This document shows, piece after piece, positions 1 through 60,512 of a stretch of DNA of 64,000 nucleotides. The translations under genes and the position numbers were made by a program. The DNA lies in NCBI GenBank assembly GCA_017444825.1, contig JAFSVU010000020.1, forward strand, positions 4,374 through 68,373, read 5' to 3'. The stretch is from Clostridia bacterium. Its GTDB lineage: Bacteria > Bacillota > Clostridia > UBA1212. Position 1 is the stretch's first letter, and every line of letters begins with the position of its first letter. The notes under the pieces are model-generated. The model did not search any database, was not told the origin of the DNA, and worked only from the letters and a program-made list of their open reading frames with translations.

Positions 1-738
1 ACAAATATGAAATAGAAACACTTTTCGTAATTGTCAAGTCCCTGAGGCATTTTTTCGATGATCCTGTCCACCACCGCGTAATAGAGGTCCACCGCCCTTC
101 TGACCTTGTCCCTGTCCGATTCGGGATGGTTCAGCCATTCGTTCGGCATATAGTAGGTAAGTTCGTAGGATGTGCCGTAAAAGTCTGAAGAAGGCATCAT
201 GTCGCTGTAGAGAAACAGCTCGGGTCTGTCAAGTCTCAGCGCGTCGATGGCATTGGTTACGGGATAGAAAAGGTCGCTGTCGTAATCGTTCTGGTCAAGC
301 GAATAATCACCGAATTTCTCTGCGTTTTCTTCCACTTTTTCGTAGAACAGTACCTCGTCTGCGCTTTTCAGAGAATCCTTTGCCTTCGGAAGCGATCCGT
401 AAGCTCCCGGATCGAGGTCCTCCGCCAGCCTGTCGCCAAGGGAGTTCATAAGCGTCACAGCCCTTTTTATAATGCCGTCGATCCTTTCGGATGCTTCTTT
501 TTCGATGTCGGAGTTAAATTCCTCACCCGGATCGAAGGAGGTTTCATATTTCGGTTTCAGCGGAGTCGGGTCCGGGGCGTTTGTTTTCTGATCATCCTGA
601 CCTCCGGGCGAGGGGACCCGGTCGTTAGGCACGATTCTTATAATGCCGCATCCGGCCAGGTAGACAACAAGAAGCAGCGCCATAAAAAAAGCGCCGCACC
701 TTCCTATTATTCCGTTACCGCTGAAATATCTTCTCACT
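1..738 (-). CDS. Putative lipoprotein, 3' end beyond window start (start GTG 738 or ATG 683). Signal peptide + lipobox LAGC.
   Basis: Reverse-strand translation gives MRRYFSGNGIIGRCGAFFMALLLVVYLAGCGIIRIVPNDR..., continuing open to position 1. AGGAAAG RBS before GTG. Not in ORF track because it is truncated. Confidence 0.45.
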
Positions 739-1384: not shown

Positions 1385-2830
1385 TTACCGAGTCAGCCAG
1401 CTGGCTTGGGCAGTTTCCTGAAGCTTCTGGAGTCCCTCAAGCATGGTCCTCTCGCCGGAGAGATAGCCTTCAACAGCATAGGCGATGTTGATCTCGCCTG
1501 CGGACATCGTAGGCATGAAGCATCCGAGGGAGCCTGCGAAATCCGCGCTTTCAGCAAAGTTCGAGAAAACGGAGGAGTTCTTTCCGGCCTTTGGATACTC
1601 GCGCCAGAATTTCTCCGAGTTTGCTTCCTTGTTAGCGGGAACGGACTGGCCTTGATCCGCATATCCTTCCGCAGCATCTTTTACCGTTGCGTAAAGAGCC
1701 AGATAAGCGCAGGTGCGGTAGAAGTCGTCGTTGTATGTTTCGCTCTTGCCGTGGTTGACCACTGCAAAGCCGTATACATTGGCGGCGATGGCCTGGTGAT
1801 AAATGCCGTTCTCCTCGTAATTGTCATCTTCCCAGCGGGGGAAATGGATGAAATCCCAGGTCCACTTTTCGCCTTCGGACTCCTCGTCCTCGGCCGCCAG
1901 CAGCGCCTCGCTCCATCTTGCGATATCCTCGTGATCCGCAACTATGAATGCGTATTTTGAAATATCATCGGGCTCAATGTCCTTGGAGTTTACGCAGGCA
2001 ACCAGTCCTCTTGCGGGATCGATTATGTCTGCCATATCCTCAAGGCCTTTTACAACGCCGGGATGTGTGAGGTCAAGCTCTTTTACATCTTCGGAGTTTC
2101 CAACGTAGTCATAAATGTCTTGACCGTAGCTTCTTGCGAAAGCGCCCCATATCGCATAGTCGGTATAGTCCATCGCGATCGGAGTCTCAACGCCCTTCTC
2201 CTTCAGCGCCTCTGCGATCTCGACCATGTCGTCCCAGGTCCAGTCGTCGTGGGGGAAAGAGAATCCCGCGTCTCCTATAAGAGAATAGTTGAGGAGCACG
2301 AACTTGTGGTTGTACTCAAGAGCTATCATGTAGACGGATCCGTTGTAGAAGCAGGCTTCGTAAGCCGCGGGAAGCAGGTCCGTTGCGGGGTTGATCTTCT
2401 TATACGTGTCAAAATTCAGGACAGTTCCGATGTACCGGGTCAGATCAATGATCTTGCCCTCCTGGGCATACTTTGCCATTCTCGGCGCATCCAGCAGTAT
2501 AACGTCTCCCGCCTCTGAAAGGTCGTCCGAGTCCATAAGATCGTCCAGTGTCTCAAAGTAGAGCTCCGGGCTTACACGGTCAAGATCGATATTGATCTCA
2601 ACGCTTGGATAGTCGGAAACGAATACCGATTTGTATCTTTCCAGGTTCTGGGCTCTGTCAGCATATAGATATCCTGAAAGTCTGATCTCATTTACAAGAG
2701 CTTCCGGAGTGGGTCTCGGGGTCGCTTTTGGGCCGTCATCGTCCTTTTTCTTCTCGGCGCAACCGAAGAAGCTGAATGTCAGAAGCAATGTCAGAGCGAC
2801 AGCGATAATGATCTTTAAAGCTTTTTTCAT
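1385..2830 (-). CDS. ABC transporter extracellular solute-binding lipoprotein (family 1, carbohydrate-type)
   Basis: Internal start MKKALKIIIAVALTLLLTFSFFGCAEKKK (signal + lipobox) preceded by a perfect RBS (revcomp TAAGGAGGAGGGACAA-ATG). Last gene of the transporter operon. The ORF track's upstream extension overlaps the permease gene and is rejected. Confidence 0.8.
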   Translation of the reverse strand: MKKALKIIIAVALTLLLTFSFFGCAEKKKDDDGPKATPRPTPEALVNEIRLSGYLYADRAQNLERYKSVFVSDYPSVEINIDLDRVSPELYFETLDDLMDSDDLSEAGDVILLDAPRMAKYAQEGKIIDLTRYIGTVLNFDTYKKINPATDLLPAAYEACFYNGSVYMIALEYNHKFVLLNYSLIGDAGFSFPHDDWTWDDMVEIAEALKEKGVETPIAMDYTDYAIWGAFARSYGQDIYDYVGNSEDVKELDLTHPGVVKGLEDMADIIDPARGLVACVNSKDIEPDDISKYAFIVADHEDIARWSEALLAAEDEESEGEKWTWDFIHFPRWEDDNYEENGIYHQAIAANVYGFAVVNHGKSETYNDDFYRTCAYLALYATVKDAAEGYADQGQSVPANKEANSEKFWREYPKAGKNSSVFSNFAESADFAGSLGCFMPTMSAGEINIAYAVEGYLSGERTMLEGLQKLQETAQASWLTR

Positions 2831-3854: not shown

Positions 3855-4780
3855 CTCCTCGTAAACAGTATGAATATGAGTATGACCGCGAGCGTGGCAA
3901 GCATGTACAGCCAGCTGAGAGCGGAAGCCTGTCCGTATTTCGTACCCTCCTGAGTCATGCTGTTCATGATGCTCATAACAGGGTTGTCGGAAGCAACGAA
4001 GGAGTCAACAAGAGCATAGATGCAGTTCAGGATCACGAAAGGTGAAATGTAAGGCAGCGTAACGTGCCAAAAACTTTCCCAGGCGGTAGCACCGTCGATC
4101 TCAACGACCTCGTAGAGGATCGCCGGAACACTCTGGAGCGCTGCGAGGAAGATCAGTATCTCAACACTGCTGGCCCACATGATTGAGCCTATGTTGCTCA
4201 TGATCGTTCCGAAGAAAGTATTTATCTCAGCGGAGCCCGTGGTGATGGAGCTGAATACGCTCATGTTTCCTACGCCATCCGCAAAGAGGTAAGTCATAAT
4301 GGTTCCGGCAAGGATGACCGGGATGAAGAATATGACACGGAACACTGTCCTTCCCGGGAACTCCTGCTTAAGGAGCACAGCCACGAACAGCGAGAACGCA
4401 ACGATGACAGGCACCTTAATGAGAGACATACCGAAGGACTTAAACACCGTTTCACCTACGGACGGATCCTGGATGACCTTAACGTAGTTGTTGATGCCAA
4501 CGAACGTACTGGTTCCCTGGAATCCGTAGAGGTCTGTAAGAACCGTCTGGAAGAAGCTGATCCTTACGGACAGCACCAGCGGCACCACTATGAAACCGAG
4601 AAAACCTATCAGCCAGGGGATCGAGAAAACGAATCCTTCAAGGTTGCGTCTTTTCTCAAAAGACATCAGAGTGTATTTTTGAGAATGCGCAAGCTTCTTT
4701 TTATACTTAATCTGTTTCAAATCAACCGGCCTCCCTTCTTTATCCGACATTAACGGTCTCGAATGCGCCGTTTGTGACAA
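3842..4780 (-). CDS. ABC transporter permease, MalF/UgpA-like (CUT1 family)
   Basis: 312 aa with N-terminal basic region then TM helices. Overlaps the downstream permease by 13 nt (translational coupling). Confidence 0.85.
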   Translation of the reverse strand: MSQTAHSRPLMSDKEGRPVDLKQIKYKKKLAHSQKYTLMSFEKRRNLEGFVFSIPWLIGFLGFIVVPLVLSVRISFFQTVLTDLYGFQGTSTFVGINNYVKVIQDPSVGETVFKSFGMSLIKVPVIVAFSLFVAVLLKQEFPGRTVFRVIFFIPVILAGTIMTYLFADGVGNMSVFSSITTGSAEINTFFGTIMSNIGSIMWASSVEILIFLAALQSVPAILYEVVEIDGATAWESFWHVTLPYISPFVILNCIYALVDSFVASDNPVMSIMNSMTQEGTKYGQASALSWLYMLATLAVILIFILFTRRWLK

Positions 4781-7469
4781 GGCCTATGCCAAGAGCCGGA
4801 ACAACTCCGTCCTCGGTCTCAAAAGCCTCATCTCCGTAGTTAACATAAACCTTAATGCCGTTGCTGTACTCGGTGCAGTAAACATTACCGGATCTTGCTC
4901 CGTCAACGCAACGGTGGCCGGTGATCTCTGCGGCAGCAACAGGGGCGAGCACTTTGTCGGCTATTACGTAGCCCTTCTGAATATCCTTCGAAAGTTCTCC
5001 GTACTGTGCCTTGAAAAGTGAATTGTAGTTTGTGTATCTGAGTTCCTCGGTGGGCTCATGGGTCACTTCGTATGTGAGAAATGCGCCGTACTCAATGGAT
5101 CTCAGGATGGTCTTGGTGTAGTCGGAGCTTCTGTTGACGGCAGATGAATAGTAATCAACCAGTCCGTGATACACGATCTCAAGAAGCGGCACAGACTCAT
5201 CGATGGAGAAGAGTCTCGAGGTCTCCGTAGGAATGTCGAGGATGTTGTCGGCGACTGAAGCCGCATACTCATAGCCATAGTATACCGATACGGTGTCGAA
5301 TACCTCTTTGTACTTCACGATCCAACTGCGGTAGTATTCCAGTCCCTGCTGGCGGAGAAGAGCATTCTCCTTGTTATAGTCGGTATAAAGCAGATTGCCA
5401 AGCTGCTGGAGGTCAAGGTTCTTAAAGCCGAGCTTTGAGAGGTTCTTGATGTCGTTGCTCAGCATCTTGTTGTTGTAGTAGCGGGGGCTCATGTAGTAAT
5501 AGTCCGAATCCCTTCTGAACACGCCCGCGGTGCTGACCAGCTTATAGTTAACGTAGAACGTACCGGGATTCTTTACGACTGCCTGCCTGAGACTTGCGCC
5601 CTTCGGATTTCCGTAGAGTATGAGCATGTTCACGTCAGCAGAGACGGTGGCATCGCTCTCCGCAGCATAGGAGTTGAGATCCTTCAGACCGCCGGAGCCG
5701 CCCATAGCCAGACCGATGTTGTATTTCCGCGTAATGTTTCCGTAGTAGCCGTTCTGCTGCCAGCCCAGCACGGAGTAGCGGATCTTCGGCAATACCGTCT
5801 TAGTGTCGCCGATAATATCCTTTATCTGACCGAAAGTGGTCATGACCTTATAAGTCGGGAATATGGATACCGAAGCCCTGTTTATGTCAGCCACAAAGAC
5901 CTTGAGGTTGAGCACGTCAGGATTCTTGTTCTTGTTCTCCTCAGTGTTTACATCCACCTCGGAATTCTTCAGATAATCAAGGGTCTTCTTATCGTTGCCC
6001 CACTTCTCAATGATAAAGTTTCTGATGTTCTTGGCCACATCCACGTATGAGTAGTCCTTTGAGCTGTCGATCTCAAACATGTATTTCATGGTGAAATCGC
6101 CAATGCCGGACGGAACCTCGAGGAATGTGTACTCGGAACCGCCGTTGCTGAGCTTCGCCTGGTAGAACTCTCTCCACTTGAAGTAATATGAAATGTAGTA
6201 GAACGGGAGGCTCTTCGTGCCGGGCTTGCCCATGAGGATGGAAGCATTGGCTTCGCTCTCGGTAGCAAAGCATGTGAGCATCACTTCGTCGTCGATCGTG
6301 CCGAAAGCGGGAAGCGATATGGTCTCATTGGTCATATTCGGGTAGTTGAACACGTCGAATATGTCGTCGTAGCCGTAAATGCGCTTCTGGTACTCGTCGT
6401 ATGTGGAAATACGGGGCACGTCAAAATATGTGAGACCGCCTGAGCCGTCGGGAGTCACGTAATAACCGCTGTCGCCCTGTCTCTTTGCGCTGATAAAGGG
6501 CAGGCAGGCTATGGAAGCAACTCTCGGCATCTCGTCGGAATCATTGTCGTAGTCCTTTTCCTCCTTGTCCTCATGGACATCCTTCTTGGGAACGTTCACC
6601 ACGAGGTCGCCGTTTTCATCAAGGTAGAACTCAACGCCAATGCTGAACTCATAATTGACCTTGTAGGTCTCCGCCATGTTGTTGGTCTTGGTGATCTCAA
6701 CGGGGATGGTGTATTTAACCTTGAAGCCGTTTTCGATCATGTAATACTCGATGGTAAGCTTATCGTTCTGGTTGATACCCCAGTCCTTTCCTCCGTCAAG
6801 GTTGGAAGCGGTCCAGCCGAGTCTTACAAGAGACGAAATGATGTCATGGTTCTTCTTGTACTTCGGGTAGGGATCGTCTTTGGTGGCGGGATCCATCTCG
6901 CTTTCAAGCGGCGCTGGCCAGCTTCTGATCTCTTTTCTGTCGCCTTTTGCATTGGTTATGTCAAGGATCAGCAGCTGATCGGCAGGCGAGAACTTAAGGA
7001 TTGTCTCACCGCCCTGGCTGTTTTTGACCTTTGCGATCTCGGTCATGCCGGCATCCAGATCAATGCCGGCGCCCACAGGCTTGGGATCGTTCATGACGAT
7101 ATAGTCGCGAAGCCATTTGATGTAGCCGACGTTTCCGCCGAATATTACTTTGTATACTACGAAGACAGCCACGAGGACCACTATCACCGAAATGGTGGTG
7201 GCGATGATCCTGTTTCTCTTCTTTTTCTTTCTCTGCTGCTCGAGGAACCTTTCGGCCTCCTCTTTGTCGACGTAGACATTTCTCTTTACATTTTCCTCGT
7301 CCAGAGACTTGGAGAACAGAGAGGGCTTGTTCTCTTCGGGATTTTCGGTGCCCTGAGTTTTGTCGACAGGATTGGTTTCTGCGGCATTTTCCGGGGTCGT
7401 TCCCTCTATAGTCGTGTTGACTTGAGCAGCGTCTTTATCAGTTTCGGTCTTCTTTATTTTCTTAGACAA
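4740..7469 (-). CDS. Large type-II membrane protein, glycoside-hydrolase-like extracellular domain. Uncharacterised family, paralogous to CDS 41723-43579.
   Basis: 909 aa. TTG start at 7469 with AAAGGAG RBS. About 90 aa of charged N-terminus, then TM IIATTISVIVVLVAVFVVY, then a large ectodomain. Shares GG.SGGLKDL / LGWQQNGYYG / PLLEIVYHG motifs with the cytoplasmic paralog LDGWGKMGYD / GGAEGMKDL / PLFTLVYHE. Confidence 0.6.
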   Translation of the reverse strand: MSKKIKKTETDKDAAQVNTTIEGTTPENAAETNPVDKTQGTENPEENKPSLFSKSLDEENVKRNVYVDKEEAERFLEQQRKKKKRNRIIATTISVIVVLVAVFVVYKVIFGGNVGYIKWLRDYIVMNDPKPVGAGIDLDAGMTEIAKVKNSQGGETILKFSPADQLLILDITNAKGDRKEIRSWPAPLESEMDPATKDDPYPKYKKNHDIISSLVRLGWTASNLDGGKDWGINQNDKLTIEYYMIENGFKVKYTIPVEITKTNNMAETYKVNYEFSIGVEFYLDENGDLVVNVPKKDVHEDKEEKDYDNDSDEMPRVASIACLPFISAKRQGDSGYYVTPDGSGGLTYFDVPRISTYDEYQKRIYGYDDIFDVFNYPNMTNETISLPAFGTIDDEVMLTCFATESEANASILMGKPGTKSLPFYYISYYFKWREFYQAKLSNGGSEYTFLEVPSGIGDFTMKYMFEIDSSKDYSYVDVAKNIRNFIIEKWGNDKKTLDYLKNSEVDVNTEENKNKNPDVLNLKVFVADINRASVSIFPTYKVMTTFGQIKDIIGDTKTVLPKIRYSVLGWQQNGYYGNITRKYNIGLAMGGSGGLKDLNSYAAESDATVSADVNMLILYGNPKGASLRQAVVKNPGTFYVNYKLVSTAGVFRRDSDYYYMSPRYYNNKMLSNDIKNLSKLGFKNLDLQQLGNLLYTDYNKENALLRQQGLEYYRSWIVKYKEVFDTVSVYYGYEYAASVADNILDIPTETSRLFSIDESVPLLEIVYHGLVDYYSSAVNRSSDYTKTILRSIEYGAFLTYEVTHEPTEELRYTNYNSLFKAQYGELSKDIQKGYVIADKVLAPVAAAEITGHRCVDGARSGNVYCTEYSNGIKVYVNYGDEAFETEDGVVPALGIGLVTNGAFETVNVG

Positions 7470-9591
7470 GATAGCTCAACTCCTTTGCAAACTGAACGAT
7501 GAAATCGATAAGCTGTGATGTAAGTCCTCTCACGATCATGAAGAGAACCACAACAGCGGCAACACCTGCGGCCGTAAGCACGAATACCAGCAGCGCCTTA
7601 AGCGGGTTGAATCCGTGTACGCCCTTCATGCACATGAATACGAGGAAAATGACCCATGCGTATGAGATGTATTGTACAATGTTGTAAAGAGGCATTTCCT
7701 GGAGCGTCAGCACCTGGGTGATGATCGCCAAAGGAAGCTGGATGAGTATGAAAGGCACGTGGCAATATGCTCCGCCGATCACAACGTCCCTGAATCTGCC
7801 TTCGCCGTAAAGGATAGTCGTAACACCGTAGTTGACAGTGCAGATGACCGCCCAGGGAAGGATACAGAACAGCAGTTCAAATCCCCAGTCAATGAATTCC
7901 AGAGACTCACCGTTTCTGTAAATGAAGCTCGTGGCGTACAGTGACAGGATATGTGTCACGATGTAGATCACCATGACTATCACCGCATCAAGGTAGGTTC
8001 CCTTGTTCTCATATCTGATATCTTCAAATCCGTCCACCGGATGGATCGAGATATGCACCATATTCTTGAGAAAGGCCACGGTCTTTGTGAAGAAGTTGAC
8101 CTTCGGCTCGCCCTTCGGATGCTTCATCCTGTAGCGCTTCATGATGGACTTAAATACCACGAGACCTACGAGAAGCACCACGAGCACGGTGGCGATGATC
8201 GAGAAGTACTCGCCAAGGAAGTCGGAGCGGAGCTCTTCAAACGCTGTGGACGCACCTGTCGCATCCTCGGCATCGTAGAAATACTGAAGCGCTTCACTGT
8301 ATCTTTCTTCTCTCCAGTAGATCTGACCGATGGACTGAAGCGCAAGAACGTAGAAGTTGTCTTCGCGCTTTACTTCCGTCCACTGAACGAAAGCATTGTC
8401 GGTTCCGGTGGGGTCGTCCGGGTTGTCAGCGGCTTCATATTTTCCGTCGCTGTAATTCTTATTGGCTTTGTGAACAAGTCTTGCAAACTCGGTCTGTTCG
8501 AATACGTAAACGGTGTTGTTCTGACCGTTGAGAACGTACAATCTGCCGTTTTCATCCACCTCAATGGATCTCGGGAGGGAGAACTGGCCGTAGCCCGTAC
8601 CTACCGCACCGAAAGCGAACAGGTTTCTGCCCCACTCATCATATTCATAAACACGGCCGTACGTGGCGTCAATGATGTACGTGTTAAGGTCCTTGTCAAC
8701 GGTGACGTCGATAAAGTTCTGAAGGTCGGCTGAGTTTCTCAAAAGACCTATATCCGAGAAATCCTTTCCGGCGTAAAGAACGTCCGAACCTGCGGGGTTT
8801 ATCTTACGCATCTGAGCACTGGTGTAACCGGTCGTAGTGGCGTAGATATAACCGTCATGTATAAATATATTGTTAAAAGTATAAGGGAGCGTAACAACGG
8901 TTCCTTTTCTGGACTCTCTTGACCAGAGGAATCTCGCGACCATCTCCCAGAATGTGAGAGCAACCTTGTTTGTTCCGAAATAGTTTCTGAACTCACCGTC
9001 GGAGGAGAGCATCAGAATACCGTTCGAGTCGCCAACGGAGCAAACGTAGATGTATCCCTTCTCATCTTTTACGACGCGCTGGGGCTGGTAGTTAAAATCA
9101 TCCACCAGTATGTCACTGGACGGAGTCGGATATGCGTAACGGAAATTGCCGTACTTCGTGAACTCCACAAGTCGCTTGTTACCGTAGTCGGCTACGAGAA
9201 TGGTTCCGTCTTTGTCAACGAACACGCAGGTCGGCTTGCTGAGCTTGCTTCCGTCCTCCTCGAAGCCTGTGATCTCGAAATCGAAAGTGTAGTCACTCTT
9301 CAGAATAACGATCCTGTTGTTTCCCGTATCGGCGATATAGATCTTTCCGTCGGGGCCGATGAAAATGTCCTCAGGGTCGAGGAGTTTTCCGTGCTCCTTG
9401 TCGGGGAAGTCGATTACCTTGCTGATTTGATAAGCCTCCGGTGTGGGAAGGTTCCAGCTGTAATCGTCAGAGGATGACATGAAGTAGTTTGAGTACGGAG
9501 TCGCGGCACTGACAGGCGCTATCGTGAAAAGTGAGAGCACCAACGCCAATGCGACCGAAAGACACACAAATTTTGAAATGTTTCTTCTCAT
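7462..9591 (-). CDS. Secreted NHL-repeat beta-propeller protein fused to a C-terminal multipass (Yip1-like) membrane domain
   Basis: 709 aa. Signal peptide ...APVSAATP. NHL-type repeats IYIADTGNNRIVIL, LVADYGNKRLVEF, YVLNGQNNTVYVF. The C-terminal ~270 aa contain 5-6 hydrophobic helices. Confidence 0.7.
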   Translation of the reverse strand: MRRNISKFVCLSVALALVLSLFTIAPVSAATPYSNYFMSSSDDYSWNLPTPEAYQISKVIDFPDKEHGKLLDPEDIFIGPDGKIYIADTGNNRIVILKSDYTFDFEITGFEEDGSKLSKPTCVFVDKDGTILVADYGNKRLVEFTKYGNFRYAYPTPSSDILVDDFNYQPQRVVKDEKGYIYVCSVGDSNGILMLSSDGEFRNYFGTNKVALTFWEMVARFLWSRESRKGTVVTLPYTFNNIFIHDGYIYATTTGYTSAQMRKINPAGSDVLYAGKDFSDIGLLRNSADLQNFIDVTVDKDLNTYIIDATYGRVYEYDEWGRNLFAFGAVGTGYGQFSLPRSIEVDENGRLYVLNGQNNTVYVFEQTEFARLVHKANKNYSDGKYEAADNPDDPTGTDNAFVQWTEVKREDNFYVLALQSIGQIYWREERYSEALQYFYDAEDATGASTAFEELRSDFLGEYFSIIATVLVVLLVGLVVFKSIMKRYRMKHPKGEPKVNFFTKTVAFLKNMVHISIHPVDGFEDIRYENKGTYLDAVIVMVIYIVTHILSLYATSFIYRNGESLEFIDWGFELLFCILPWAVICTVNYGVTTILYGEGRFRDVVIGGAYCHVPFILIQLPLAIITQVLTLQEMPLYNIVQYISYAWVIFLVFMCMKGVHGFNPLKALLVFVLTAAGVAAVVVLFMIVRGLTSQLIDFIVQFAKELSYLV

Positions 9592-11485: not shown

Positions 11486-14400
11486 TCAGCCCTCCCCCTT
11501 TCTAGTCGACCAGATTATCGAGAAGTCTTCCTTTATAAGGTTACCCTCGCTGTCAAACGCATCATTGAAGAATTCTTTCTGTTTACGTTTCATTTCTTTG
11601 TTGATCTCCCTGACGGCATCCTCGAGAGCGATCCTGATGTTGTCGCCCTGAAGAACGGACTGGTTGAGCGCTGTCAGGAGGTAACGGTCTGTGTAGTATC
11701 CTCCGAGAACCACGGGGTATTCGGTGAAGTACTTCCACTGCTCGTTGATGACTTCCAGCTCATCGTCGCTGTATGCCATGTTGTTTATGGCAAGCTTGTT
11801 GGCTGTGTTCCATCTCGAAGCAACGCCGAACGTGGCCTCGACTTCCTGAGCATACTTGACCTGGATCTCCTCGCTCATCCACCACTTGACGAATTCCCAG
11901 CCTTCGGCTGCGTGGTTTCTGTCGCCCTCGTTTCTGATGAGGATGCAGGTGGTTCCGCTTCCGCCCATGCTTCTGTCAACCGTGCCGTCCTCTTTGAGAT
12001 GTCCCGGAACAGGCGACATAGCCCATTTACCGTTGATCTCAGGAGCGGAATATTTGAGCTGGCAGTAGAGGCCCATATCCGCAACTCCTATCGGCATGTC
12101 GCCGAGCTTGAACTTCATGTAGAAGTTGGATGCGTAAGGAATATTGTATTTATTGTAAAGGTTGGCGTACTCGTAGAAAGCATCGTATGCTTCTGCCGAA
12201 TCCAGGTTGGAGTGGAGACCGTCCGCGTCGTAAACCGACGCGCCGTTCTGGTAAAGGAACGGGTACATGTTTCCGACACCGTAGTTATAGCAGAAATCCA
12301 TGCTCTTTTCCTGGAGTCTCGGAAGTATCTCGTATACCTCTTCCCAGGTGTCCGGAGGATTCTCTATACCCAGTTCCTCCATGATATCCGTTCTGTAGAA
12401 GAGGGCCACCCAGTTCTGGGTCTCCGGCACCGTGTAATACATTCCGCGGTATCTGGAAAGCGTGTAGTTTCCGGGGAGGAAGTTCTCATCGAAATATGTG
12501 TAGAAATCGGTGTTTTCATCCTCCACGCCGTCTCCGTCGAGGTCGTTGTACGCCACCAGAGCGCCTCTGGCGGCATATTCGACAGGCGACCTGTTGCCTA
12601 CCGAGATGGCCACGTCAGGAGCGGTCTTCGTAACATAGCGCAGCATGACGAGGCCTTCGACATTCTGTACCATGTTAACGTTTACTCTGATATATTTCTC
12701 TTCGGTGACCCCGTTAACCGTCACTGCGCGTTTCACCGGTGTGAAGTCCTCGGCGATGAGGGCTCTCAGCATCTCGACGTATTCACGTCCTCTGCCGATA
12801 TAGACCTCGATCTCCTCGGTCTGGTTTTTAGAGGGGTCTTCTCTTGCGCCGACAACGGAGTAATCCTTTACCCAGGAGTCTCCGAATTTGATGGCGCCTA
12901 CGTAGAAGGACTGGAAGCCGTTACTGCGGCATTTATCATAGTTGAACTCGCCGCCGTGAATGACCATGTAATCGATGGCGATGGGCTGCTCGGTGATATT
13001 CTGAAGGGTTGTTGAAAGGCTCGAAAGAGCGTTTGAAATTTCGTTCAGGGATGCGGGAATGTCCTCAAGGCCCTCCGTACCTCTGGCAAGTCTCTCGAAG
13101 AGAGCTTTTGCCACGGCAACGGACGATCCGTAATAAGGGGTGACATCGCCGTTGGCGGCCTTGATCTCGTTAAATATCCTCTCGAAGGTGTCGCGGTAGT
13201 TTGCGATCTCTTCTTCGATTCCCATGATGTATTTATCGAGGTCCCAGTCTCTGTTCTTATCAACGCTGTATCCGCCGGTGGAGCTTCTCGTCGCGCCTGT
13301 GATGTTAACGACCATGCTGATAAGCTTTGAGATCGAATCCATGGACTCTTTGAGACTCTGGATGGCCTTTCTCAGGGGGCCGACCTTCGATGTGATGCTT
13401 ATGGTGTGGGTGCCCTTTGTGAGGTAGAAGTAATAAGGCTGCTGATTTTCGTCTATCAGCGAGGAACCTGCCCATCCGTCTGTGTACGGGAAGCAGTACT
13501 CCTCCATCTGTTCGAAGGGGATCTCGCCGTCAATGTTGATCTCGGCGTACACCGCGATATCCGTCAGTGTATTCTGGTATCTGAAACCGATCTGGTACCA
13601 GCCGTCTTTCTCTACGTTAAAGCTCCAGGAGGCACCGTCGCCGCCGTTGGCCCATCTGTCGCCGCCGAAATAGTTATATCTTGTGACCTTGTAGGATGCG
13701 GGTGATGAAGCATAGTCGCCGTCCCACTCGCTTCTGATGCTGATGGTGTTCTTTGTGTCGGGTACCTCAAACTCTACCTTGGTAAGGCCATCCTTAACGA
13801 TAGCGCTCTCGGAGAAGGAGTTCCGGACCTTGTACTCTTCATAAGTGAGAGACTTGAGAGGAGCCTTCAGTGTGATGGTTTTGATAATAACGGGCTCTCT
13901 TCCGAAGGTGAGCGATATAGTCCTCGGTTTGTCTGCAGATGCAAGGGAGCTGGCGTTGATCAGGAACCTGTAGGGGTTTCTGTAAAGACCTTCGGGATTC
14001 TGAAGAGTGGTCGTCTGCCACATGAAAAGTTCCTGCTGCTGGTTGCGGATCTCGTTTCCTCCGAAATCAAGGCTCTTTTTATCGAAGAATCCGTAAACAC
14101 GCTTAAGCTCGATGCTGGCGGCTTCCTTGAAGGGGTACTTGTTATCTACACTCAGACGGACCAGGGTGTTGTTAGATCTGTTCTCCGGGAGAAAATACTC
14201 AACGTCCATTGAGTAAAGAGCGGTCTCGGGCACATCAGGTTTGTAGATAAACGTGATCTCCTCGATGGCGCTGGAGGAACCGTCACCCGCATCGTTTCTG
14301 CCGAAATATATGGCGGAGGGGTCTGCCTTGATGGTTCCGGAGGCCTCGGTGAACCTGTCTTTCTGATTCGAAGCCGATGTGTAACCGTTCTCGTCTCTGC

Positions 14401-14911
14401 CCTCTTCGATGTCGACCTTGTAGGTAAAACCGTAATCCTCGTCAAAGCTGATGTGATTTACGATCCTCTCGATCTTCCTGACGACCTCCTCGGTGGCAAA
14501 AGAGAATTCTCCGTTAAGGACCTTCCCGTAATCGTAGTTCTTACCGCGGTAGGAGACGTTTTTGTATTCACCGTTATCGTCGCGGTAGAGGTAAAGTGTG
14601 TCGCCGCTGTCGATCTTAAAGCTGATGCCGTAAAAATCTGTAGCGTTAATGACAATATCTTCACCCGCGTAGGACTCGTATTTCTTGTCACCGTACTTCT
14701 TCAGTACCTTTCCGTACTCGAGGAGACTGTTATCGGATCTCTCCTCATAATCGGCAAAGGGGTTGAAGTCAAGAATATCGTCGTTTTCGACTTTGAACTG
14801 CTTGACATCCGCCTTGCGGCCGCCATAGATAAAGAGAGCCGCAATAATGGCAACGACAAGCACTGCAAAAATCACCAAAACGATAATTTTACGCTTTTGT
14901 TTCTTGTCCAT
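11486..14911 (-). CDS. Giant membrane-anchored solute-binding protein. N-terminal TM, ~650-aa extension with a beta-sandwich CBM-like segment, and a C-terminal family-1 SBP domain.
   Basis: 1141 aa. MDKKQKRKIIVLVIFAVLVVAIIAALFIYGG anchor. Middle segment NGGDGASWSFNVEKDGWYQIGFRYQN is CBM-like. The C-terminal ~450 aa (WVALFYRTDIMEELGI...PDTWEEVYEI...) resemble extracellular solute-binding proteins. First gene of the operon. Confidence 0.7.
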   Translation of the reverse strand: MDKKQKRKIIVLVIFAVLVVAIIAALFIYGGRKADVKQFKVENDDILDFNPFADYEERSDNSLLEYGKVLKKYGDKKYESYAGEDIVINATDFYGISFKIDSGDTLYLYRDDNGEYKNVSYRGKNYDYGKVLNGEFSFATEEVVRKIERIVNHISFDEDYGFTYKVDIEEGRDENGYTSASNQKDRFTEASGTIKADPSAIYFGRNDAGDGSSSAIEEITFIYKPDVPETALYSMDVEYFLPENRSNNTLVRLSVDNKYPFKEAASIELKRVYGFFDKKSLDFGGNEIRNQQQELFMWQTTTLQNPEGLYRNPYRFLINASSLASADKPRTISLTFGREPVIIKTITLKAPLKSLTYEEYKVRNSFSESAIVKDGLTKVEFEVPDTKNTISIRSEWDGDYASSPASYKVTRYNYFGGDRWANGGDGASWSFNVEKDGWYQIGFRYQNTLTDIAVYAEINIDGEIPFEQMEEYCFPYTDGWAGSSLIDENQQPYYFYLTKGTHTISITSKVGPLRKAIQSLKESMDSISKLISMVVNITGATRSSTGGYSVDKNRDWDLDKYIMGIEEEIANYRDTFERIFNEIKAANGDVTPYYGSSVAVAKALFERLARGTEGLEDIPASLNEISNALSSLSTTLQNITEQPIAIDYMVIHGGEFNYDKCRSNGFQSFYVGAIKFGDSWVKDYSVVGAREDPSKNQTEEIEVYIGRGREYVEMLRALIAEDFTPVKRAVTVNGVTEEKYIRVNVNMVQNVEGLVMLRYVTKTAPDVAISVGNRSPVEYAARGALVAYNDLDGDGVEDENTDFYTYFDENFLPGNYTLSRYRGMYYTVPETQNWVALFYRTDIMEELGIENPPDTWEEVYEILPRLQEKSMDFCYNYGVGNMYPFLYQNGASVYDADGLHSNLDSAEAYDAFYEYANLYNKYNIPYASNFYMKFKLGDMPIGVADMGLYCQLKYSAPEINGKWAMSPVPGHLKEDGTVDRSMGGSGTTCILIRNEGDRNHAAEGWEFVKWWMSEEIQVKYAQEVEATFGVASRWNTANKLAINNMAYSDDELEVINEQWKYFTEYPVVLGGYYTDRYLLTALNQSVLQGDNIRIALEDAVREINKEMKRKQKEFFNDAFDSEGNLIKEDFSIIWSTRKGEG

Positions 14912-15030: not shown

Positions 15031-15059
15031 ATTATAAGTTTTTTGGTTATTTGTGTCAA
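15031..15059 (-). promoter_or_regulatory. Sigma-A-type promoter for the ABC uptake operon (revcomp TTGACA-17-TATAAT)
   Basis: Minus strand reads TTGACAcaaataaccaaaaaactTATAAT. It sits ~110 nt upstream of the 14911 start codon. Confidence 0.5.
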
Positions 15060-15292: not shown

Positions 15293-17104
15293 TTATTTCA
15301 GCGGCAGGCTCGACAGGTAATCGTAGCACATGCGCGCACAGTTCACGTTATCCGAGTCGTAACGCTCGACTGCCATGATGAGCAGGAGATCTCCCGCTTT
15401 CAGTTCAGCCAGTGCGTCCTTTATGACGGTCTTTCCGGAGGAAACGACAGCTGCGCCGTCCCCTTCCTTCACGTAGTTTGATACCGTGTTGAAGTCGCCT
15501 CTGTGGGTCACGGTGACCTTGCAGTAGTCCTTGGCGAGATAAGGTGCGATCGCGTGTCTGAACGAATCTCCAATTATCAGGGCCTTCTGCTCCGTTGGCG
15601 CGTCGGACGTATACACTCTGAGCTCCGTGTTGGGAGTCTCATTGCCGCCGGTTACCGTGTTGGAATAGTATGCCGCGACTTTTGATTTGACCCACGGCTT
15701 ATAGTTCACGGAATAGCCGGTGTAATGTGTCGCGGGCCCTACGCCCAGGTTCACAAGGTCCCCGCCCTTGTAATCGCCCTCGGTGACTTCCACGTTCTGA
15801 AGACCGGTCACGGGGAGTCCTATCGCAGAATAGACCTGCATGGCGCCGACGAAGCCTCCAACGGAATTCCAGTGGGTGTCCTGCTGAAGGTATGTCTCGT
15901 AGAGTATCTTTGCGGATTTCATCTGGGTAAGGGGATACACAAACTTTATCGGACTGCCCTGCTGCTTCAGATATTCCACAAACTTTGGTTCGCGCTTCGC
16001 GGAATCGTCCACGATGGTAACGCCCGAAGGCATATACTCTGCGTAGACCTGCTCCTTGTTCGGGGGAATGAGGAACACGACCGAAATGCCTCTTTTCTCG
16101 CATTCGTAGTGAATAAGTTCATACGTATCCTTCCACGATTTGGCATCGGCGGCGGAGAGCACGTTGTCCCCCTGGAAATAGCCCACGCTGTCGTTTCCCG
16201 AATAGAAATACCAGTCGTGAAGGCCCTTGAAGCCTGCGCCGCTGTAAGAGATGGGAGATTTCCCGTCGTAGAATCCTTTAACAGTGGTCCGGAGGACGAT
16301 GTTGCTGACATCCACATCCGAGCACATGGAGCACTTTTTCATGACGTAGCCGTCGTGGGCGTAAGAAGCGTTCTGGCTTTTTACCACCGTATAAATATGG
16401 CCCGGCGCTTTGATGACCTCGTATTTATATTCGCCGCAGTATTCGCACTGATAGCGGGCTTCTCCGTCTTTCGTGCAGGACGACGTTTTAATGACCGTAT
16501 AGTTCACGAAATGGTGAGGACAGGGAGTGGGAGTGGGTGGCTCTGTCGCTTCCGGAGACTCAGTCTCCTCCGGGGATTCGGTCTCTTCCGGCTCCGGTGT
16601 GTCAGTCGCCTCCGGTGTCTCCGTGGGTGTCTCCGTGGGAGCTTCCGTGGGCTCTTCTGTAGGGGCTTCGGTGGGGTCACCGAAAATACCGCCGAAATCC
16701 GGCGTAGGCGTCGGCTCCGGGGTCGGGGTCGGTGTCTGATCGGGTGCCAAAGTTACCTCCGGGGTCGCCGTGGGCTCGGGGGTCGCATTGGCGAGTACTA
16801 TCGCCCTGTAGATCGGGTTTTTGATCCTCTCCTCGTAAAACTTGCTCATTCCGTTGTCCATGTCCTTCATGACCTGAATGTTCCAGTTCCTGAGCGGGGC
16901 ATGGTCTTTTATAAAGCTGTCGACTTTGGCAAAGTAGTCGTTGGAATATTCCGACGGAAAACCCGCAAGCTCCCTGATCTCGCCGCCCTCTTCGTCCTGG
17001 ACAACGTCAAGTCCCGCGATTCCCAGGGCCCAGGGTACGGCTATGGCAAGCGCAAACAGGCTCACCGCCACTATGGATATGATGAAATTCTTCACCTGCC
17101 GCAC
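15293..17104 (-). CDS. DHHW-family (AlgJ/AlgX/DltD-like) protein with N-terminal TM, Pro/Thr/Glu linker and an inserted Cys-rich module
   Basis: 603 aa. DTHWN motif in ETYLQQDTHWNSVGG. Linker TPEPTATPEV...PTPTP. Cys-rich block CPHHF...CTKDGEARYQCEYCGEY...CSMCSD. Lies immediately downstream of the MBOAT gene. Confidence 0.75.
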   Translation of the reverse strand: MRQVKNFIISIVAVSLFALAIAVPWALGIAGLDVVQDEEGGEIRELAGFPSEYSNDYFAKVDSFIKDHAPLRNWNIQVMKDMDNGMSKFYEERIKNPIYRAIVLANATPEPTATPEVTLAPDQTPTPTPEPTPTPDFGGIFGDPTEAPTEEPTEAPTETPTETPEATDTPEPEETESPEETESPEATEPPTPTPCPHHFVNYTVIKTSSCTKDGEARYQCEYCGEYKYEVIKAPGHIYTVVKSQNASYAHDGYVMKKCSMCSDVDVSNIVLRTTVKGFYDGKSPISYSGAGFKGLHDWYFYSGNDSVGYFQGDNVLSAADAKSWKDTYELIHYECEKRGISVVFLIPPNKEQVYAEYMPSGVTIVDDSAKREPKFVEYLKQQGSPIKFVYPLTQMKSAKILYETYLQQDTHWNSVGGFVGAMQVYSAIGLPVTGLQNVEVTEGDYKGGDLVNLGVGPATHYTGYSVNYKPWVKSKVAAYYSNTVTGGNETPNTELRVYTSDAPTEQKALIIGDSFRHAIAPYLAKDYCKVTVTHRGDFNTVSNYVKEGDGAAVVSSGKTVIKDALAELKAGDLLLIMAVERYDSDNVNCARMCYDYLSSLPLK

Positions 17105-17110
17105 CTCCCG

Positions 17111-18622
17111 TCAGAAGTTCTGGTAAATGGACGGCGCATAGGAACCGCCCACCACTCTTACGATGCAGAGTGCGAACAGCGCAAGCAGCAGAACGTACTC
17201 AACGATGCGCACCCAAGTCTTCGTCTTGAACTTTTCAGCTACTTTTGCGAGAGGTCTCTGGAGCGCGCCGCAGAAAACAATGCCGCAGACGAGGGCAATG
17301 ATGACCGAAAGATCAAGGTAGGACAGCACGGAATAGCCCGCGGAGGACGACTTGAAGGAGAACATCTGACCAATGTACTTCCCTGCAAAATCAAGGCTGT
17401 CGGATCTGAAGAACACCCAGCCGATCATGACCACCAGCGTGGTGTACAGCCAGTTCAGAGGCTTCACCGGGTTCTTCTGAAGAAGTTTTCCGAGGAACAG
17501 CCTTTCTATAATGCTCATCACCACGAAAATGAGACCCCAGACTATAAAGGTCAGGTTTGCACCGTGCCAGATGCCCGTCACGAAGAACACGACGGCGACG
17601 TTGAAGCACGCTCTCGCCTTGCTGCACCTGCTTCCTCCGAGGGGTATGTAGATGTAATCCTTGAACCAGTTGGAAAGCGATATGTGCCATCTGCGCCAGA
17701 ATTCCTGGACCGAGAATGACGTGTAAGGATAATTGAAGTTTTCGTCGATCTTAAATCCGAGCATACCGCCCACGCCAATGGCCATATCGGTGTAGCCCGA
17801 AAAATCGTAATAGATCTGGATCGTGTAAAGGACGATGCCGAGCCATGCTATCGGGGCGCCCATGGATTCGATGTTCATGGTGGTATTCTGGGTCGCGAAG
17901 ATCTTGTCCACCGAGGCGGCGACGACATTGGCGATGAGCACTTTTTTCGCAAGGCCGTAAACAAACCGTCTCAGCCCGGCAGTGAAGCCCTCCATCGTAT
18001 GGGTCCTGCTCTCGATCTGCTTTCCCAGGTTCCCGTATCTCATGATAGGTCCCTGTGTGACCTGGCAGAGCAGCGTCATGTACAGCGCAAAGGTGAGGAT
18101 GTTTTTCGAACGCTCCGTCTTCCCGAGATAGACGTCGGTGACATACGAGATCGCCTGGAATATGATAAACGAGATCGCAAGGGGCATCACTATCTTCAGG
18201 ATCCCCTCAGGAACGACTGAAGTGTTGAACTTGACCAGTCCCTCCATGGCCGCGCCGAAACTGCCGCTGTTTTTGAACATGTCTATCATGCTCATGAACA
18301 TGGTGGTGTACTTGAAGAAGATGAGCACGCCCACGTTAAGAAGAAGCGTTCCTACGAAAACCGCCCGCCTGAGGCCTTTTTTCTTTTCGGCATCAATGGC
18401 GCCAATGGCCCACCCCGCGAAAAAGTTCAGCGCTATCAGGGCAATGAAGAGAAGAAGCTCATTGATCCCTCCGAAAGCGTAGAAAACGAGACTTGCGAGG
18501 AGGAGGAAACCGTTTCTGATACCTGTCCTGACCCGCTCTTTTTTGATAAATCCCAGCAGGTAGTATACGATCAGTATTACCGGCAGGAACAGTTCAATAA
18601 ACAAAACCGATGCAAATTCCAT
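17111..18622 (-). CDS. MBOAT-family membrane O-acyltransferase (AlgI/DltB/PatA-like)
   Basis: 503 aa multipass. WRRWHISLSNWFKDYIYIPLGGSR and GIWHGA motifs are typical of MBOAT. Confidence 0.85.
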   Translation of the reverse strand: MEFASVLFIELFLPVILIVYYLLGFIKKERVRTGIRNGFLLLASLVFYAFGGINELLLFIALIALNFFAGWAIGAIDAEKKKGLRRAVFVGTLLLNVGVLIFFKYTTMFMSMIDMFKNSGSFGAAMEGLVKFNTSVVPEGILKIVMPLAISFIIFQAISYVTDVYLGKTERSKNILTFALYMTLLCQVTQGPIMRYGNLGKQIESRTHTMEGFTAGLRRFVYGLAKKVLIANVVAASVDKIFATQNTTMNIESMGAPIAWLGIVLYTIQIYYDFSGYTDMAIGVGGMLGFKIDENFNYPYTSFSVQEFWRRWHISLSNWFKDYIYIPLGGSRCSKARACFNVAVVFFVTGIWHGANLTFIVWGLIFVVMSIIERLFLGKLLQKNPVKPLNWLYTTLVVMIGWVFFRSDSLDFAGKYIGQMFSFKSSSAGYSVLSYLDLSVIIALVCGIVFCGALQRPLAKVAEKFKTKTWVRIVEYVLLLALFALCIVRVVGGSYAPSIYQNF

Positions 18623-22128: not shown

Positions 22129-22269
22129 TTTAGCTTTTTTTCAGCATTTATACTATAATACCATTGTAACCGCAAATCAGTCAGCGCCGGGAGTAAAAAC
22201 GCCTGCTCACGCAGACGTTAAGGCAGACAATTGAAAAGAAAGGAGCAACCCCGGCAGAGGAGGAATTCT

Positions 22270-22950
22270 ATGCAAATACTGTTGGTCGAGGACGAGCTCC
22301 GGCTCGCAAAAGCTCTCAAGCAGATACTTGAGGAGAATAAATACATTGTTGATACCGTAGCCAACGGCCTTGACGGCTACGAGTACGGGGTCAGCGGCAT
22401 CTATGACGTCATCGTGCTGGACGTTATGCTCCCTAAAATGGACGGAATGCAGGTGGCCAGAAAGCTTCGCGAGAACGGAGTCAGCACACCGATCATCATG
22501 CTCACCGCGAAGGACAGCATCAGGGACAAGATCAACGGCCTTGACAGCGGCGCGGACGACTACATGACAAAACCGTTTTCGCCGAACGAGTTATTGGCGA
22601 GGATCAGAGCTCTCACCCGGAGATATTCAGAGGTGCTGGCTGAAGTCACCGAATTTGGCGATTTTTCCTTCAACACCTCCGTCAACGAGATCTCACGCGG
22701 CGACAAGAGCATCAAGCTCAACTTCAAGGAGGCCGAGATACTGAAGCTGCTTCTTTCGAGGAAAAACGTGCCCGTTGCCAAGGAAGACATCATAACCAAG
22801 GTCTGGGGGCTGCAGTCCGAAGCCAGCGACTCGAACGTTGAGGCTTACATAAGCTTCGTGAGGAAGAAAATGGCCTTCATCGGCTCCGAAGTGACCATAG
22901 TTTCCTACAAGAAAAAAGGCTATATGCTGGAGAACGCCAATGCTAAATAA
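22270..22950 (+). CDS. OmpR-family response regulator
   Basis: MQILLVEDE... receiver domain plus winged-helix C-terminus. GGAGG RBS 5 nt upstream of ATG 22270. The track's upstream M at 22231 is rejected. Confidence 0.85.
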   Translation: MQILLVEDELRLAKALKQILEENKYIVDTVANGLDGYEYGVSGIYDVIVLDVMLPKMDGMQVARKLRENGVSTPIIMLTAKDSIRDKINGLDSGADDYMTKPFSPNELLARIRALTRRYSEVLAEVTEFGDFSFNTSVNEISRGDKSIKLNFKEAEILKLLLSRKNVPVAKEDIITKVWGLQSEASDSNVEAYISFVRKKMAFIGSEVTIVSYKKKGYMLENANAK

Positions 22951-24307: not shown

Positions 24308-24452
24308 ACACTGCCGCGGCACGGTTTCAGGCTTGACCCGGGCTTGATTCTCCCGGGTCTCGGGCTTTACTCACGGCCGCCAAAGTGTTATTATTAGTAT
24401 ATCTATGCAGTCCGGCTGCATAAGTTCTTGTTTGAAAAGAAGCGCAGGTATT

Positions 24453-29292: not shown

Positions 29293-29551
29293 TATATTTA
29301 CCGCCTTTACTTACAAATAATGATTTCACCGACCGGTTTTTTCGCGACGGAACGTCACGTATTTGAGCCGGGTCGCATAAAACGCAAATCATATTATACT
29401 ATCTTGATTAAAAGAATTCAACGGAAAAATTTTCCGCATTTAAGGCGGTCTTAAGGTGCCGGATCCGTGCGAAACCCGGCATTTTAAGGTTGAAGGCGGC
29501 GGCTCAAAAATGGTAAAATTTCATATCATAAGACACGGGGAGGATGTTCAT

Positions 29552-34470: not shown

Positions 34471-34473
34471 AAC

Positions 34474-35376: not shown

Positions 35377-35389
35377 AACGCCGCCCCCT

Positions 35390-36118: not shown

Positions 36119-36163
36119 TTTCCCTCCGTTAAGACCCTCAGCAACCGGCTTCAGGCCAACGAT

Positions 36164-55930: not shown

Positions 55931-56008
55931 GGTGGCTATAGCTCAGTTGGTTAGAGTACCAGGTTGTGGCCCTGGGGGCCGTGGGTTCGAGTCCCACTAG
56001 CCACCCCA
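55931..56008 (+). tRNA. tRNA-His (anticodon GUG) with G-1 and encoded CCA
   Basis: Acceptor stem GTGGCTA/TAGCCAC with extra 5' G paired to C73. Anticodon loop TTGTGGC. T-arm GTGGGTTCGAGTCCCAC. 3' CCCA. Confidence 0.85.
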
Positions 56009-56055
56009 TAGAAAAAGCGAGATGAACTGTGTTTGTCTCGCTTTTTCTATGGGGT
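56009..56055 (+). terminator. Terminator hairpin within a long inverted repeat that includes the tRNA 3' end
   Basis: ctagccaccccatagaaaaagcgaga...tctcgctttttctatggggtggctag is a ~28-bp perfect inverted repeat. The inner stem AAGCGAGA/TCTCGCTT is followed by TTTTC. Confidence 0.6.
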
Positions 56056-56096
56056 GGCTAGTTTGGTGGAGCGAGAATACACTAATAAAGGGGCCC

Positions 56097-56145: not shown

Positions 56146-56215
56146 GCAGCCTTTCAAGAGGCGATCTTTTGTATTTCTTGGAAGGCGGAATCGGCAGCGC
56201 TCGCAGCGACGCGTA

Positions 56216-60488: not shown

Positions 60489-60512
60489 CCCAGTTTAAAA
60501 ACAAAAAATCCG

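Follow-up and report, generated by a model that had tools for sequence, protein, structure and literature searches.

We analyzed a gene that encodes a fusion of a predicted extracellular NHL β-propeller to a Yip1-type membrane domain and that lies in a 64,000-nucleotide (nt) stretch of contig JAFSVU010000020.1 from a Clostridia bacterium; the whole of this stretch is referred to here as the window. The gene (hereafter the NHL/Yip1 gene) is part of a minus-strand operon in which the order of transcription is the gene for a large solute-binding protein (SBP), permeases A1 and A2, the NHL/Yip1 gene, a DUF5696 gene, permeases B1 and B2, and the gene for a lipoprotein SBP. The operon is tightly packed, its genes either overlapping or being separated by gaps of no more than 12 nt; the NHL/Yip1 gene is separated from permease A2 by 12 nt, and its end overlaps the DUF5696 gene by 8 nt. 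The SBPs are of the SBP_bac_1/SBP_bac_8 type (SBP_bac_8 matched the small one with an E-value of 8e-11 in Pfam), and EAA-type loops could be read in the translations of all four permeases, which form two pairs. The locus is therefore a CUT1-type sugar importer setting, and the NHL/Yip1 gene sits within it between BPD_transp_1 permease genes on the same strand, which is where an earlier note, made from the sequence alone, had placed it. The products of the operon comprise three membrane-tethered extracellular proteins (an SBP fused to modules of carbohydrate-binding module family 35 [CBM35], the NHL/TPR-like protein, and a protein resembling glycoside hydrolase family 129 [GH129]), a lipoprotein SBP, and two importer cores.

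The NHL/Yip1 open reading frame (ORF) begins with ATG, and the sequence AAGGAGG is located 7 nt upstream. A hydropathy scan identified a hydrophobic segment at amino acids (aa) 9-27, followed by VSA/AT, in agreement with the signal peptide that had been claimed in the earlier note; the per-residue confidence (pLDDT) of the AlphaFold2 (AF2) model was below 50 at aa 23-31. The Pfam NHL profile (PF01436) matched two stretches of the protein significantly (E 4.4e-15; 55.3 bits, with a cut-off of 20), and the three NHL motifs that had been read previously (ADTGNNRIVIL, ADYGNKRLVEF, and LNGQNNTVYVF) were all present. A search of PDB sequences with the protein returned only NHL propellers, among them the Pizza designs (up to 4.5e-29), TRIM71 (1e-20), and the sensor domain of PknD (1rwi; 8.6e-12). 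The AF2 model, which was built on an alignment of 38 family members (mean pLDDT 82.4, pTM 0.71), contained six four-stranded blades at approximately aa 36-366 (pLDDT mostly 85-95), helices at aa 368-440, a long helix at aa 444-490, and then membrane helices up to the C terminus. The propeller includes a conserved insert at aa 206-238. When the model was compared with the PDB by Foldseek, it matched NHL domains (TRIM71, Thin, Brat, and Pizza6) with target-normalized TM-scores (TMt) of 0.79-0.83 and E-values down to 1e-18. The 50 best PDB matches were all β-propeller proteins, and none of them was to the Yip1 membrane part.

The C-terminal part was matched by the Pfam Yip1 profile (PF04893) over profile positions 3-171 of 173 (E 7.3e-10; 39.4 bits, with a cut-off of 28.6). 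Hydropathy analysis detected five hydrophobic segments at aa 536-687, after the first transmembrane helix (TM1), and the AF2 helices agreed with them. The total is thus six transmembrane (TM) helices, one in the linker and five in the Yip1 domain, consistent with the 5-6 that had been suggested. The loop that follows TM1 (aa 481-535) is rich in K and R (11 K+R) and is predicted to be cytoplasmic. Because the protein has a signal peptide, and on the basis of the positive-inside rule, we predict that the propeller and linker are outside the cell, that TM1 runs inward, that the N terminus of the Yip1 domain is cytoplasmic, and that the C-terminal tail is again outside. The earlier note had named NHL and Yip1 profile searches as the check on its domain assignment, and both profiles scored above their cut-offs.

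Among relatives of the window protein, the NHL and Yip1 parts were fused in 40 loci and encoded by two genes, usually overlapping by 4 nt, in 39-40 loci. The split form consists of an NHL gene of ~495 aa and a Yip1 gene of ~210 aa. The NHL proteins of split loci had an N-terminal signal in 36 of 39 cases and a final TM helix with a short K/R tail in 37 of 39, and five TM segments were found in the Yip1 protein in 33 of 39. The split was always located in the cytoplasmic loop after TM1 (aa 481-535 in the window protein), and the fused and split forms are predicted to have the same topology. On a rough neighbor-joining tree, the distribution of fused and split states required at least five changes. 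The presence of separate genes in half of the loci, together with these changes of state, indicates that two partners have been fused in the window protein, and by the Rosetta-stone argument this provides good evidence at the sequence level that the propeller and the Yip1 core would function as a single unit. In the fused family, conservation peaked at aa 585-602, the turn between TM3 and TM4 (YG.T.I..GEGR.RD; mean column identity 0.90), which is predicted to be cytoplasmic; the C-terminal tail (0.78) and the propeller insert (0.75) were next.

The family is large. We found 368 homologues of the complete protein at E ≤ 1e-5, nearly all of them ~700 aa in length with NHL and Yip1 parts; those that are named are mostly called “YIP1 family protein” or hypothetical, and one source uses “sugar lactone lactonase YvrE.” Family members scored 36-62 bits with the Pfam Yip1 profile. 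A search with the Yip1 part alone (213 aa) against 1.84 billion clusters at 50% identity gave 1284 representatives at E ≤ 1e-3 and 658 clusters at E ≤ 1e-10, and the best 150 matches were a mixture of proteins of ~660-745 aa and ~200-240 aa. When one genome per GTDB species was scanned, we obtained at least 484 confirmed stretches, the best 80 of which were analyzed; 76 of these belonged to the family, and 4 encoded unrelated NHL proteins. The 76 family loci came from Bacillota (Paenibacillus, Cohnella, Lederbergia, Bacillus, Alkalibacterium, Ruminiclostridium hungatei, Ruminococcus flavefaciens, Lachnospiraceae, Oscillospiraceae, and Limnochordia), and they also included two Treponema metagenome-assembled genomes (MAGs) and a closed Caldilineaceae chromosome. 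The two Treponema MAGs are independent (loci L065 and L070), carry a complete cassette of the split type, and group within clostridial sequences on the tree; this placement suggests that their cassettes may have moved between phyla.

We analyzed gene neighborhoods by using phmmer to match eight window proteins to all ORFs of 84 fetched loci. In 67 of the 84 loci, and in 64 of the 76 family loci among the 80 genome matches, the genes followed the order large SBP, permease, permease, NHL/Yip1, DUF5696, permease, permease. Most of the loci without the full order were on truncated contigs, and the remainder were the four unrelated NHL loci and divergent members. This is the co-occurrence of the NHL/Yip1 architecture with CUT1 permeases that the earlier note had asked about; the same note had described a propeller between permease genes as unusual, whereas with all seven core genes in 67 of 84 loci it is instead a fixed element of a widespread cassette. 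A DUF5696 hidden Markov model identified a gene directly downstream of NHL/Yip1 in 78 of 80 family loci, and the contigs of the other two end at that point. In a reverse test, the most distant DUF5696 homologues that we found (21-25% identity) were placed in the same cassette. The gene order was kept across three phyla, down to 26-30% identity.

The genes that flank the cassette in relatives are variable and include GH43, GH26, GH10, GH3, GH67, GH36, GH38, GH78, CBM35, CBM65, β-helix proteins, and extra SBPs. With such varied carbohydrate-active enzymes (CAZymes) as neighbors, the cassette looks like a generic module that is used among different specificities. A Melibiase gene follows the cassette in locus L086. 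The closed Caldilineaceae (Chloroflexota) chromosome has a different arrangement (L016, 3311-17839 [+]), with two ordinary SBPs, NHL-Yip1, DUF5696, one permease pair, and a sulfatase. This reduced variant suggests that the tightest link is between NHL/Yip1, DUF5696, and the second permease pair. The features of the window operon are listed in Table 1.

Table 1. Features of the NHL/Yip1 operon, with positions counted from the first nucleotide of the window
Feature	Position	Strand	Evidence
NHL-propeller / TPR-like linker / TM1 / Yip1 fusion, 709 aa	7462..9591	-	ORF, translation, Pfam, AF2 model, Shine-Dalgarno sequence
Signal peptide, aa 1-29 (MRRNISK, hydrophobic core, VSA/AT with cleavage after VSA)	9505..9591	-	Hydropathy and direct reading of sequence
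Six-bladed NHL β-propeller ectodomain, ~aa 36-366	8494..9486	-	AF2 strands, Foldseek, PDB sequence matches, conservation
Helical TPR-like juxtamembrane linker, aa 367-443	8263..8493	-	AF2 helices 368-440; weak TPR family matches in homologues
TM1, aa 462-480, predicted outside to inside	8152..8208	-	Hydropathy, K/R counts
Yip1 domain, aa 514-683, five TM helices	7543..8052	-	Pfam PF04893, TM segments, conservation profile
DUF5696 protein, 909 aa, GH129/GH101-like fold	4740..7469	-	Pfam DUF5696 2e-117, AF2, Foldseek
Large membrane-anchored SBP, 1141 aa, first operon gene	11486..14911	-	SBP_bac_8, PDB match, CBM35 profile
ABC importer permease A1, 334 aa	10480..11484	-	BPD_transp_1; EAA-like loop ELYDAAMVDG...IDIP
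ABC importer permease A2, 289 aa	9604..10473	-	BPD_transp_1; EAA loop FEAGKIDGAS...IALP
ABC importer permease B1, up to 312 aa	3842..4780	-	BPD_transp_1; EAA loop YEVVEIDGAT...VTLP
ABC importer permease B2, 336 aa	2844..3854	-	BPD_transp_1; EAA loop DDSARIDGAG...IMLP
Small solute-binding lipoprotein, ~481 aa from MKKALKII...FFGC	1385..2830	-	SBP_bac_8, SBP_bac_1; lipobox-like FFGC
Promoter-like site, 12/12 (TTGACA-17-TATAAT)	15031..15059	-	Consensus scan, pattern match only
Terminator-like hairpin after last minus-strand gene	674..697	-	Consensus scan, pattern match only

The AF2 model of the DUF5696 protein (pTM 0.80) has an N-terminal TM helix, a β-sandwich, a (β/α)8 barrel, and a C-terminal β domain. 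In Foldseek it matched the GH129 enzymes ZgGH129, a 3,6-anhydro-D-galactosidase (5opq; E 1.4e-29, TMt 0.70), and NagBb, an α-N-acetylgalactosaminidase (5wzp; E 1.4e-24, TMt 0.73), as well as GH101 and then, at lower significance, GH36, GH31, and GH97. A DUF5696 family profile also found GH129 chains among PDB sequences (1.1e-5 and 1.7e-3), in collinear pieces. The three-domain fold is common to DUF5696, GH129 (ZgGH129 and NagBb), and GH101, but the identity is only 12-15%, DUF5696 has an N-terminal TM anchor, and the profile alignments with the GH129 chains leave the catalytic region uncovered. The best candidates for catalytic acids are D697, D757, and E793, each of which is substituted in 1-2 of 22 aligned DUF5696 members, all of them distant ones. 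We therefore regard the protein as having a glycosidase-like fold with a putative, unproven activity. In some MAGs of Eubacteriales and Oscillospiraceae, the DUF5696 protein is much longer, at 1200-1719 aa (L029 12185-17344 [+], L033, L035, L039, and L041), and a Pfam scan of these extra-long proteins, up to the one of 1719 aa, detected no family besides DUF5696.

The large SBP begins with an N-terminal TM anchor, followed by two CBM35-like modules (~aa 150-500), a coiled-coil-like stalk (~aa 505-640), and an SBP domain that covers ~aa 741-1026 or extends further (SBP_bac_8, 8e-14 in Pfam). The C-terminal part matched sugar SBPs in the PDB, the best being Lin1841 (2.5e-14). When the N-terminal 580 aa were aligned from 23 loci, an internally repeated module became visible, and the resulting profile matched the CBM35 of cycloisomaltooligosaccharide glucanotransferase (CITase; 5x7g, 1.3e-9), along with other CBM35/CBM6 modules; Pfam CBM_35 was found in 8 of the 23 homologues. 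Proteins of this type, ~1000 aa in length, head the cassette in nearly all relatives, and a Pfam scan of the variants showed that some divergent ones have no match to any SBP model.

No MalK-type ATPase gene was found in the cassette or in the rest of the window, where the sole ABC ATPase-like ORF (257 aa) is located at 35390-36163. In Bacillota, it is common for importers to share an ATPase that is encoded elsewhere. In nine relatives from Paenibacillaceae, Bacillaceae, and Ruminiclostridium (L005, L006, L011, L012, L013-L015, L019, and L020), an ATPase-like ORF of the size of MalK lies directly upstream of the large SBP gene. Ruminiclostridium hungatei (L012, 2784-5067 [+]) has two such ORFs in tandem, which matches the two permease pairs. 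According to Pfam, the upstream genes of relatives included ABC_tran in 10 of 63 and OB_MalK in 7.

At the upstream end of the operon, the promoter-like site is ~120 nt from the large SBP gene, and the total of such sites in the region is not above that in shuffled sequence. At the other end, a gene for a small DUF6106 membrane protein (753-1292 [-]) separates the last SBP gene from the terminator-like hairpin and may be on the same transcript as the operon. The actual start codon of permease B1 probably lies farther downstream than the listed TTG.

Directly upstream of the operon (15293-18622 [-]) are genes for an MBOAT protein (503 aa) and an AlgX-like SGNH protein (603 aa), the latter of which contains a linker rich in Pro, Thr, and Glu and a stretch rich in Cys. 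Together the two resemble systems for the O-acetylation of polysaccharides. Farther away are a GH36/Melibiase-like gene (703 aa; 19700-21811 [-]) and a GH78-like rhamnosidase gene (865 aa; 29456-32053 [+]). Two gene sets look as if they belong to cell division and cell-wall hydrolysis rather than to the sugar operon: an OmpR-type response regulator, a histidine kinase, and a PcsB-like M23 peptidase (22231-25844 [+]), and an S41 (CtpB-like) peptidase, FtsX, and the 257-aa ABC ATPase-like ORF (33013-36163 [-]). Beyond a tRNA-His gene (55932-56008 [+]), the GC content drops from ~0.53 and is 0.41-0.43 as far as the window's end (64000), and this low-GC region encodes a TetR-type regulator, an AAA_21 ATPase (402 aa), a DUF6273 protein, and ORFs without a family. 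The region 55932-64000 may be an integrated foreign element.

The closest known systems are those in which a Yip1 protein accompanies an ABC transporter. The activity of YknYZ depends on YknW, which modulates how the YknXYZ complex is assembled (PMC4887032), and BawG, a 223-aa Yip1 protein with five TM segments, is encoded beside BawDEF in the bacteriocin cluster BawDEFG (PMC10707071). As in the YknWXYZ locus of B. subtilis and B. amyloliquefaciens and in the bawcin cluster, the cassette described here places a PF04893 protein with five TM segments beside ABC transporter genes in Bacillota, and its split Yip1 proteins (~210 aa, five TM segments) are about the size of proteins of the BawG/YknW type. 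However, YknYZ and BawEF are MacB-type exporters that have an HlyD/membrane-fusion partner and handle peptides, whereas the partners in the cassette are CUT1 importers with SBPs; Pfam detected no FtsX/MacB permease or HlyD gene in the window cassette. A further difference is that Yip1 in the cassette comes coupled or fused to an NHL propeller outside the cell, whereas YknW and BawG have no such propeller. Because these systems are MacB-type exporters, the likeness is one of working principle and not of membership.

Other comparisons are more partial. Eukaryotic Yip1/YIPF proteins are members of the same Pfam family, with the same core of five TM segments and a cytoplasmic N terminus (PMC6682643), but their role is in ER-Golgi trafficking, together with Rab GTPases and Yif1, both absent in bacteria, and they have neither an extracytoplasmic propeller nor a transporter context. 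PknD resembles the window protein in having a six-bladed NHL propeller outside a bacterial membrane, tethered by a TM helix (Pizza proteins are designs derived from NHL propellers). The propeller of PknD is linked to a cytoplasmic Ser/Thr kinase, whereas the window protein presents only the Yip1 loops to the cytoplasm and is encoded in a transporter operon. A Gram-positive polysaccharide utilization locus (gpPUL) has been defined by an enzyme, a transporter, and a regulator (PMC5320581). The cassette is like gpPULs with CUT1 importers in its SBPs, its MalF/MalG-type permeases, and its glycosidase-fold protein, and CAZymes flank it in relatives. By this definition, the window contains the transporter, and the enzyme would be the GH129-like fold with its putative activity, in addition to the GH36-like gene ~5 kb upstream; unlike in gpPULs, no dedicated regulator is adjacent in the window. 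Two permease pairs in a fixed order, the CBM35-SBP fusion, DUF5696, and the NHL/Yip1 component are not described for gpPULs in that study.

The cassette combines two sugar importers with a glycosidase-like enzyme, and the NHL/Yip1 protein belongs to it as a fixed component. We therefore consider it most likely, with a probability of about 0.5, that the protein is an accessory subunit, integral to the membrane, of a machine for capturing, trimming, and importing glycans that has two CUT1-type importers. After cleavage of the signal peptide, the propeller and its TPR-like stalk would stand outside the cell, TM1 would lead into the cytoplasm, and the Yip1 core with its five TM segments would lie in the membrane, where it could dock laterally onto the permease heterodimers or organize them. 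The Yip1 core might also touch the cytoplasmic face of the permeases or a MalK-type ATPase, a contact that is possible because the most conserved Yip1 element is the predicted cytoplasmic turn. The propeller/TPR ectodomain would keep the CBM35-SBP and the GH129-like DUF5696 protein, and possibly the glycan itself, beside the importers, and oligosaccharide would be captured, trimmed, and passed straight to the transporters. TPR-like linkers are typical protein-protein interaction modules. A scaffold was one of the roles suggested in the earlier note, and it is compatible with the accessory-subunit model that we infer and prefer. A stronger version would hold that the cassette encodes a previously unrecognized glycan capture, cleavage, and import machine of Bacillota, transferred to some Spirochaetota and Chloroflexota, in which the Yip1-NHL protein is an obligatory extra subunit of type I importers and physically couples the CBM35-SBP and the GH129-like enzyme to two permease pairs; we put this forward as a tentative proposal that more probably overstates the case.

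Several points weigh against the accessory-subunit model. To our knowledge, none of the type I ABC importers described so far requires an additional polytopic membrane subunit, and the YknW and BawG precedents belong to MacB-type exporters with a membrane-fusion protein, not to type I importers. The Caldilineaceae locus is without the large SBP and the first permease pair, so the full seven-gene set is not obligatory. Variation of the candidate acids in distant DUF5696 members makes the trimming step uncertain. That the proteins associate physically, which partners are contacted, and that the propeller binds rather than catalyzes are all matters that we infer, and the propeller could be catalytic, because enzymes exist among six-bladed NHL or SGL-type propellers and the SGL (SMP-30/gluconolactonase) profile scored 23.3 bits on the window protein, just below its cut-off of 26.3.

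If the propeller were an extracellular enzyme (a lyase, lactonase, or esterase) that acts on the imported glycan, the Yip1 domain would be merely its membrane anchor. In addition to the near-threshold SGL score on the window protein, the SGL profile exceeded its cut-off in homologue P0152 (33.8 bits), virginiamycin B lyase was among the Foldseek matches, one source calls homologues lactonases, and the operon context is one of carbohydrate processing. Nevertheless, the conserved D, N, and R residues sit in the structural NHL motif of each blade, with no separate conserved set of metal-binding or catalytic residues identified, and the best fold matches were NHL domains of the binding type. One TM helix would suffice as an anchor, which leaves the conserved core of five TM segments and its cytoplasmic conservation peak unexplained, and the very different specificities of the neighboring CAZymes favor a generic role over a single chemistry. 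We consider an enzymatic propeller unlikely. A sensor or gate, in which the propeller detects glycan and Yip1 relays the signal to the transporters or to a cytoplasmic regulator, was the other role suggested in the earlier note. It would fit the use of an extracellular NHL propeller as the sensor domain of the M. tuberculosis kinase PknD, which was matched in the PDB search, and a conserved cytoplasmic turn could touch an ATPase or a regulator. The window protein, however, has no recognizable output domain, its cytoplasmic parts being short loops only, and no regulator family is steadily adjacent: histidine kinases accounted for 3 of 68 downstream genes, and LacI, GntR, and AraC regulators were sporadic. 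The two-component system of the window is ~7 kb away on the other strand, beside the PcsB-like M23 peptidase gene. The sensor suggestion thus found no support, and we regard it as quite improbable.

The protein might also be a transient biogenesis or assembly factor for the membrane-anchored components and not a stoichiometric subunit, to which we assign a small probability. YknW has been described as modulating YknXYZ assembly (PMC4887032), eukaryotic Yip1 proteins work in membrane trafficking and not in transport (PMC5898192, PMC6682643), and a TPR-like module would suit a chaperone-type role. The NHL/Yip1 gene is nevertheless in the middle of the operon and translationally coupled to structural genes, which argues for similar expression levels, and a role in membrane insertion would not explain the large conserved extracellular propeller. 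An assembly role overlaps with that of an accessory subunit, and the two are inseparable by sequence analysis. Finally, the adjacency of the genes could be incidental, or the locus could serve to export or modify a surface polysaccharide, as the MBOAT and AlgX-like SGNH genes directly upstream on the same strand in the window might suggest. Conservation of the gene order over three phyla makes this highly improbable. The upstream genes vary among relatives, with no MBOAT or AlgX family among the recurrent ones, and BPD_transp_1 permeases with SBPs are importers (type I ABC systems). We rejected the idea of polysaccharide export because the MBOAT/AlgX-like neighbors are not conserved in relatives.

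A search of a literature library found no paper in it that mentions DUF5696, and combinations of Yip1, NHL, ABC transporter, Paenibacillus, and glycoside hydrolase found none on the cassette. The single domains are already known, and proteins of the NHL/Yip1 type are annotated generically; these searches did not bring up the module of seven genes, the pairing and fusion of the NHL and Yip1 genes, the likeness of DUF5696 to GH129, or the CBM35-SBP fusion.

ABC sugar importers are the main route of oligosaccharide uptake in Gram-positive fiber degraders of the gut, rumen, and soil, and they are usually described as consisting of an SBP, two permeases, and an ATPase. The cassette has further fixed parts, namely two permease pairs, a CBM35-SBP fusion of ~1000 aa, a GH129-like protein that is so far filed under DUF5696 alone, and an NHL/Yip1 component, and these parts, together with the 658 Yip1 clusters, suggest a surface machine that is more elaborate than the textbook one. 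Cultivable carriers exist in Paenibacillus, Cohnella, Lederbergia, Ruminiclostridium hungatei, and Ruminococcus flavefaciens, so the idea is directly testable. If the accessory-subunit model is correct, it would provide a functional context for DUF5696, and the cassette would serve to mark glycan-uptake loci of a distinct class in the genomes of microbiomes. It would also be a second, independent link between bacterial Yip1 proteins and ABC transporters, after YknW, and if the protein were an obligatory subunit, bacterial Yip1 proteins would have a general role as organizers of ABC transporters.

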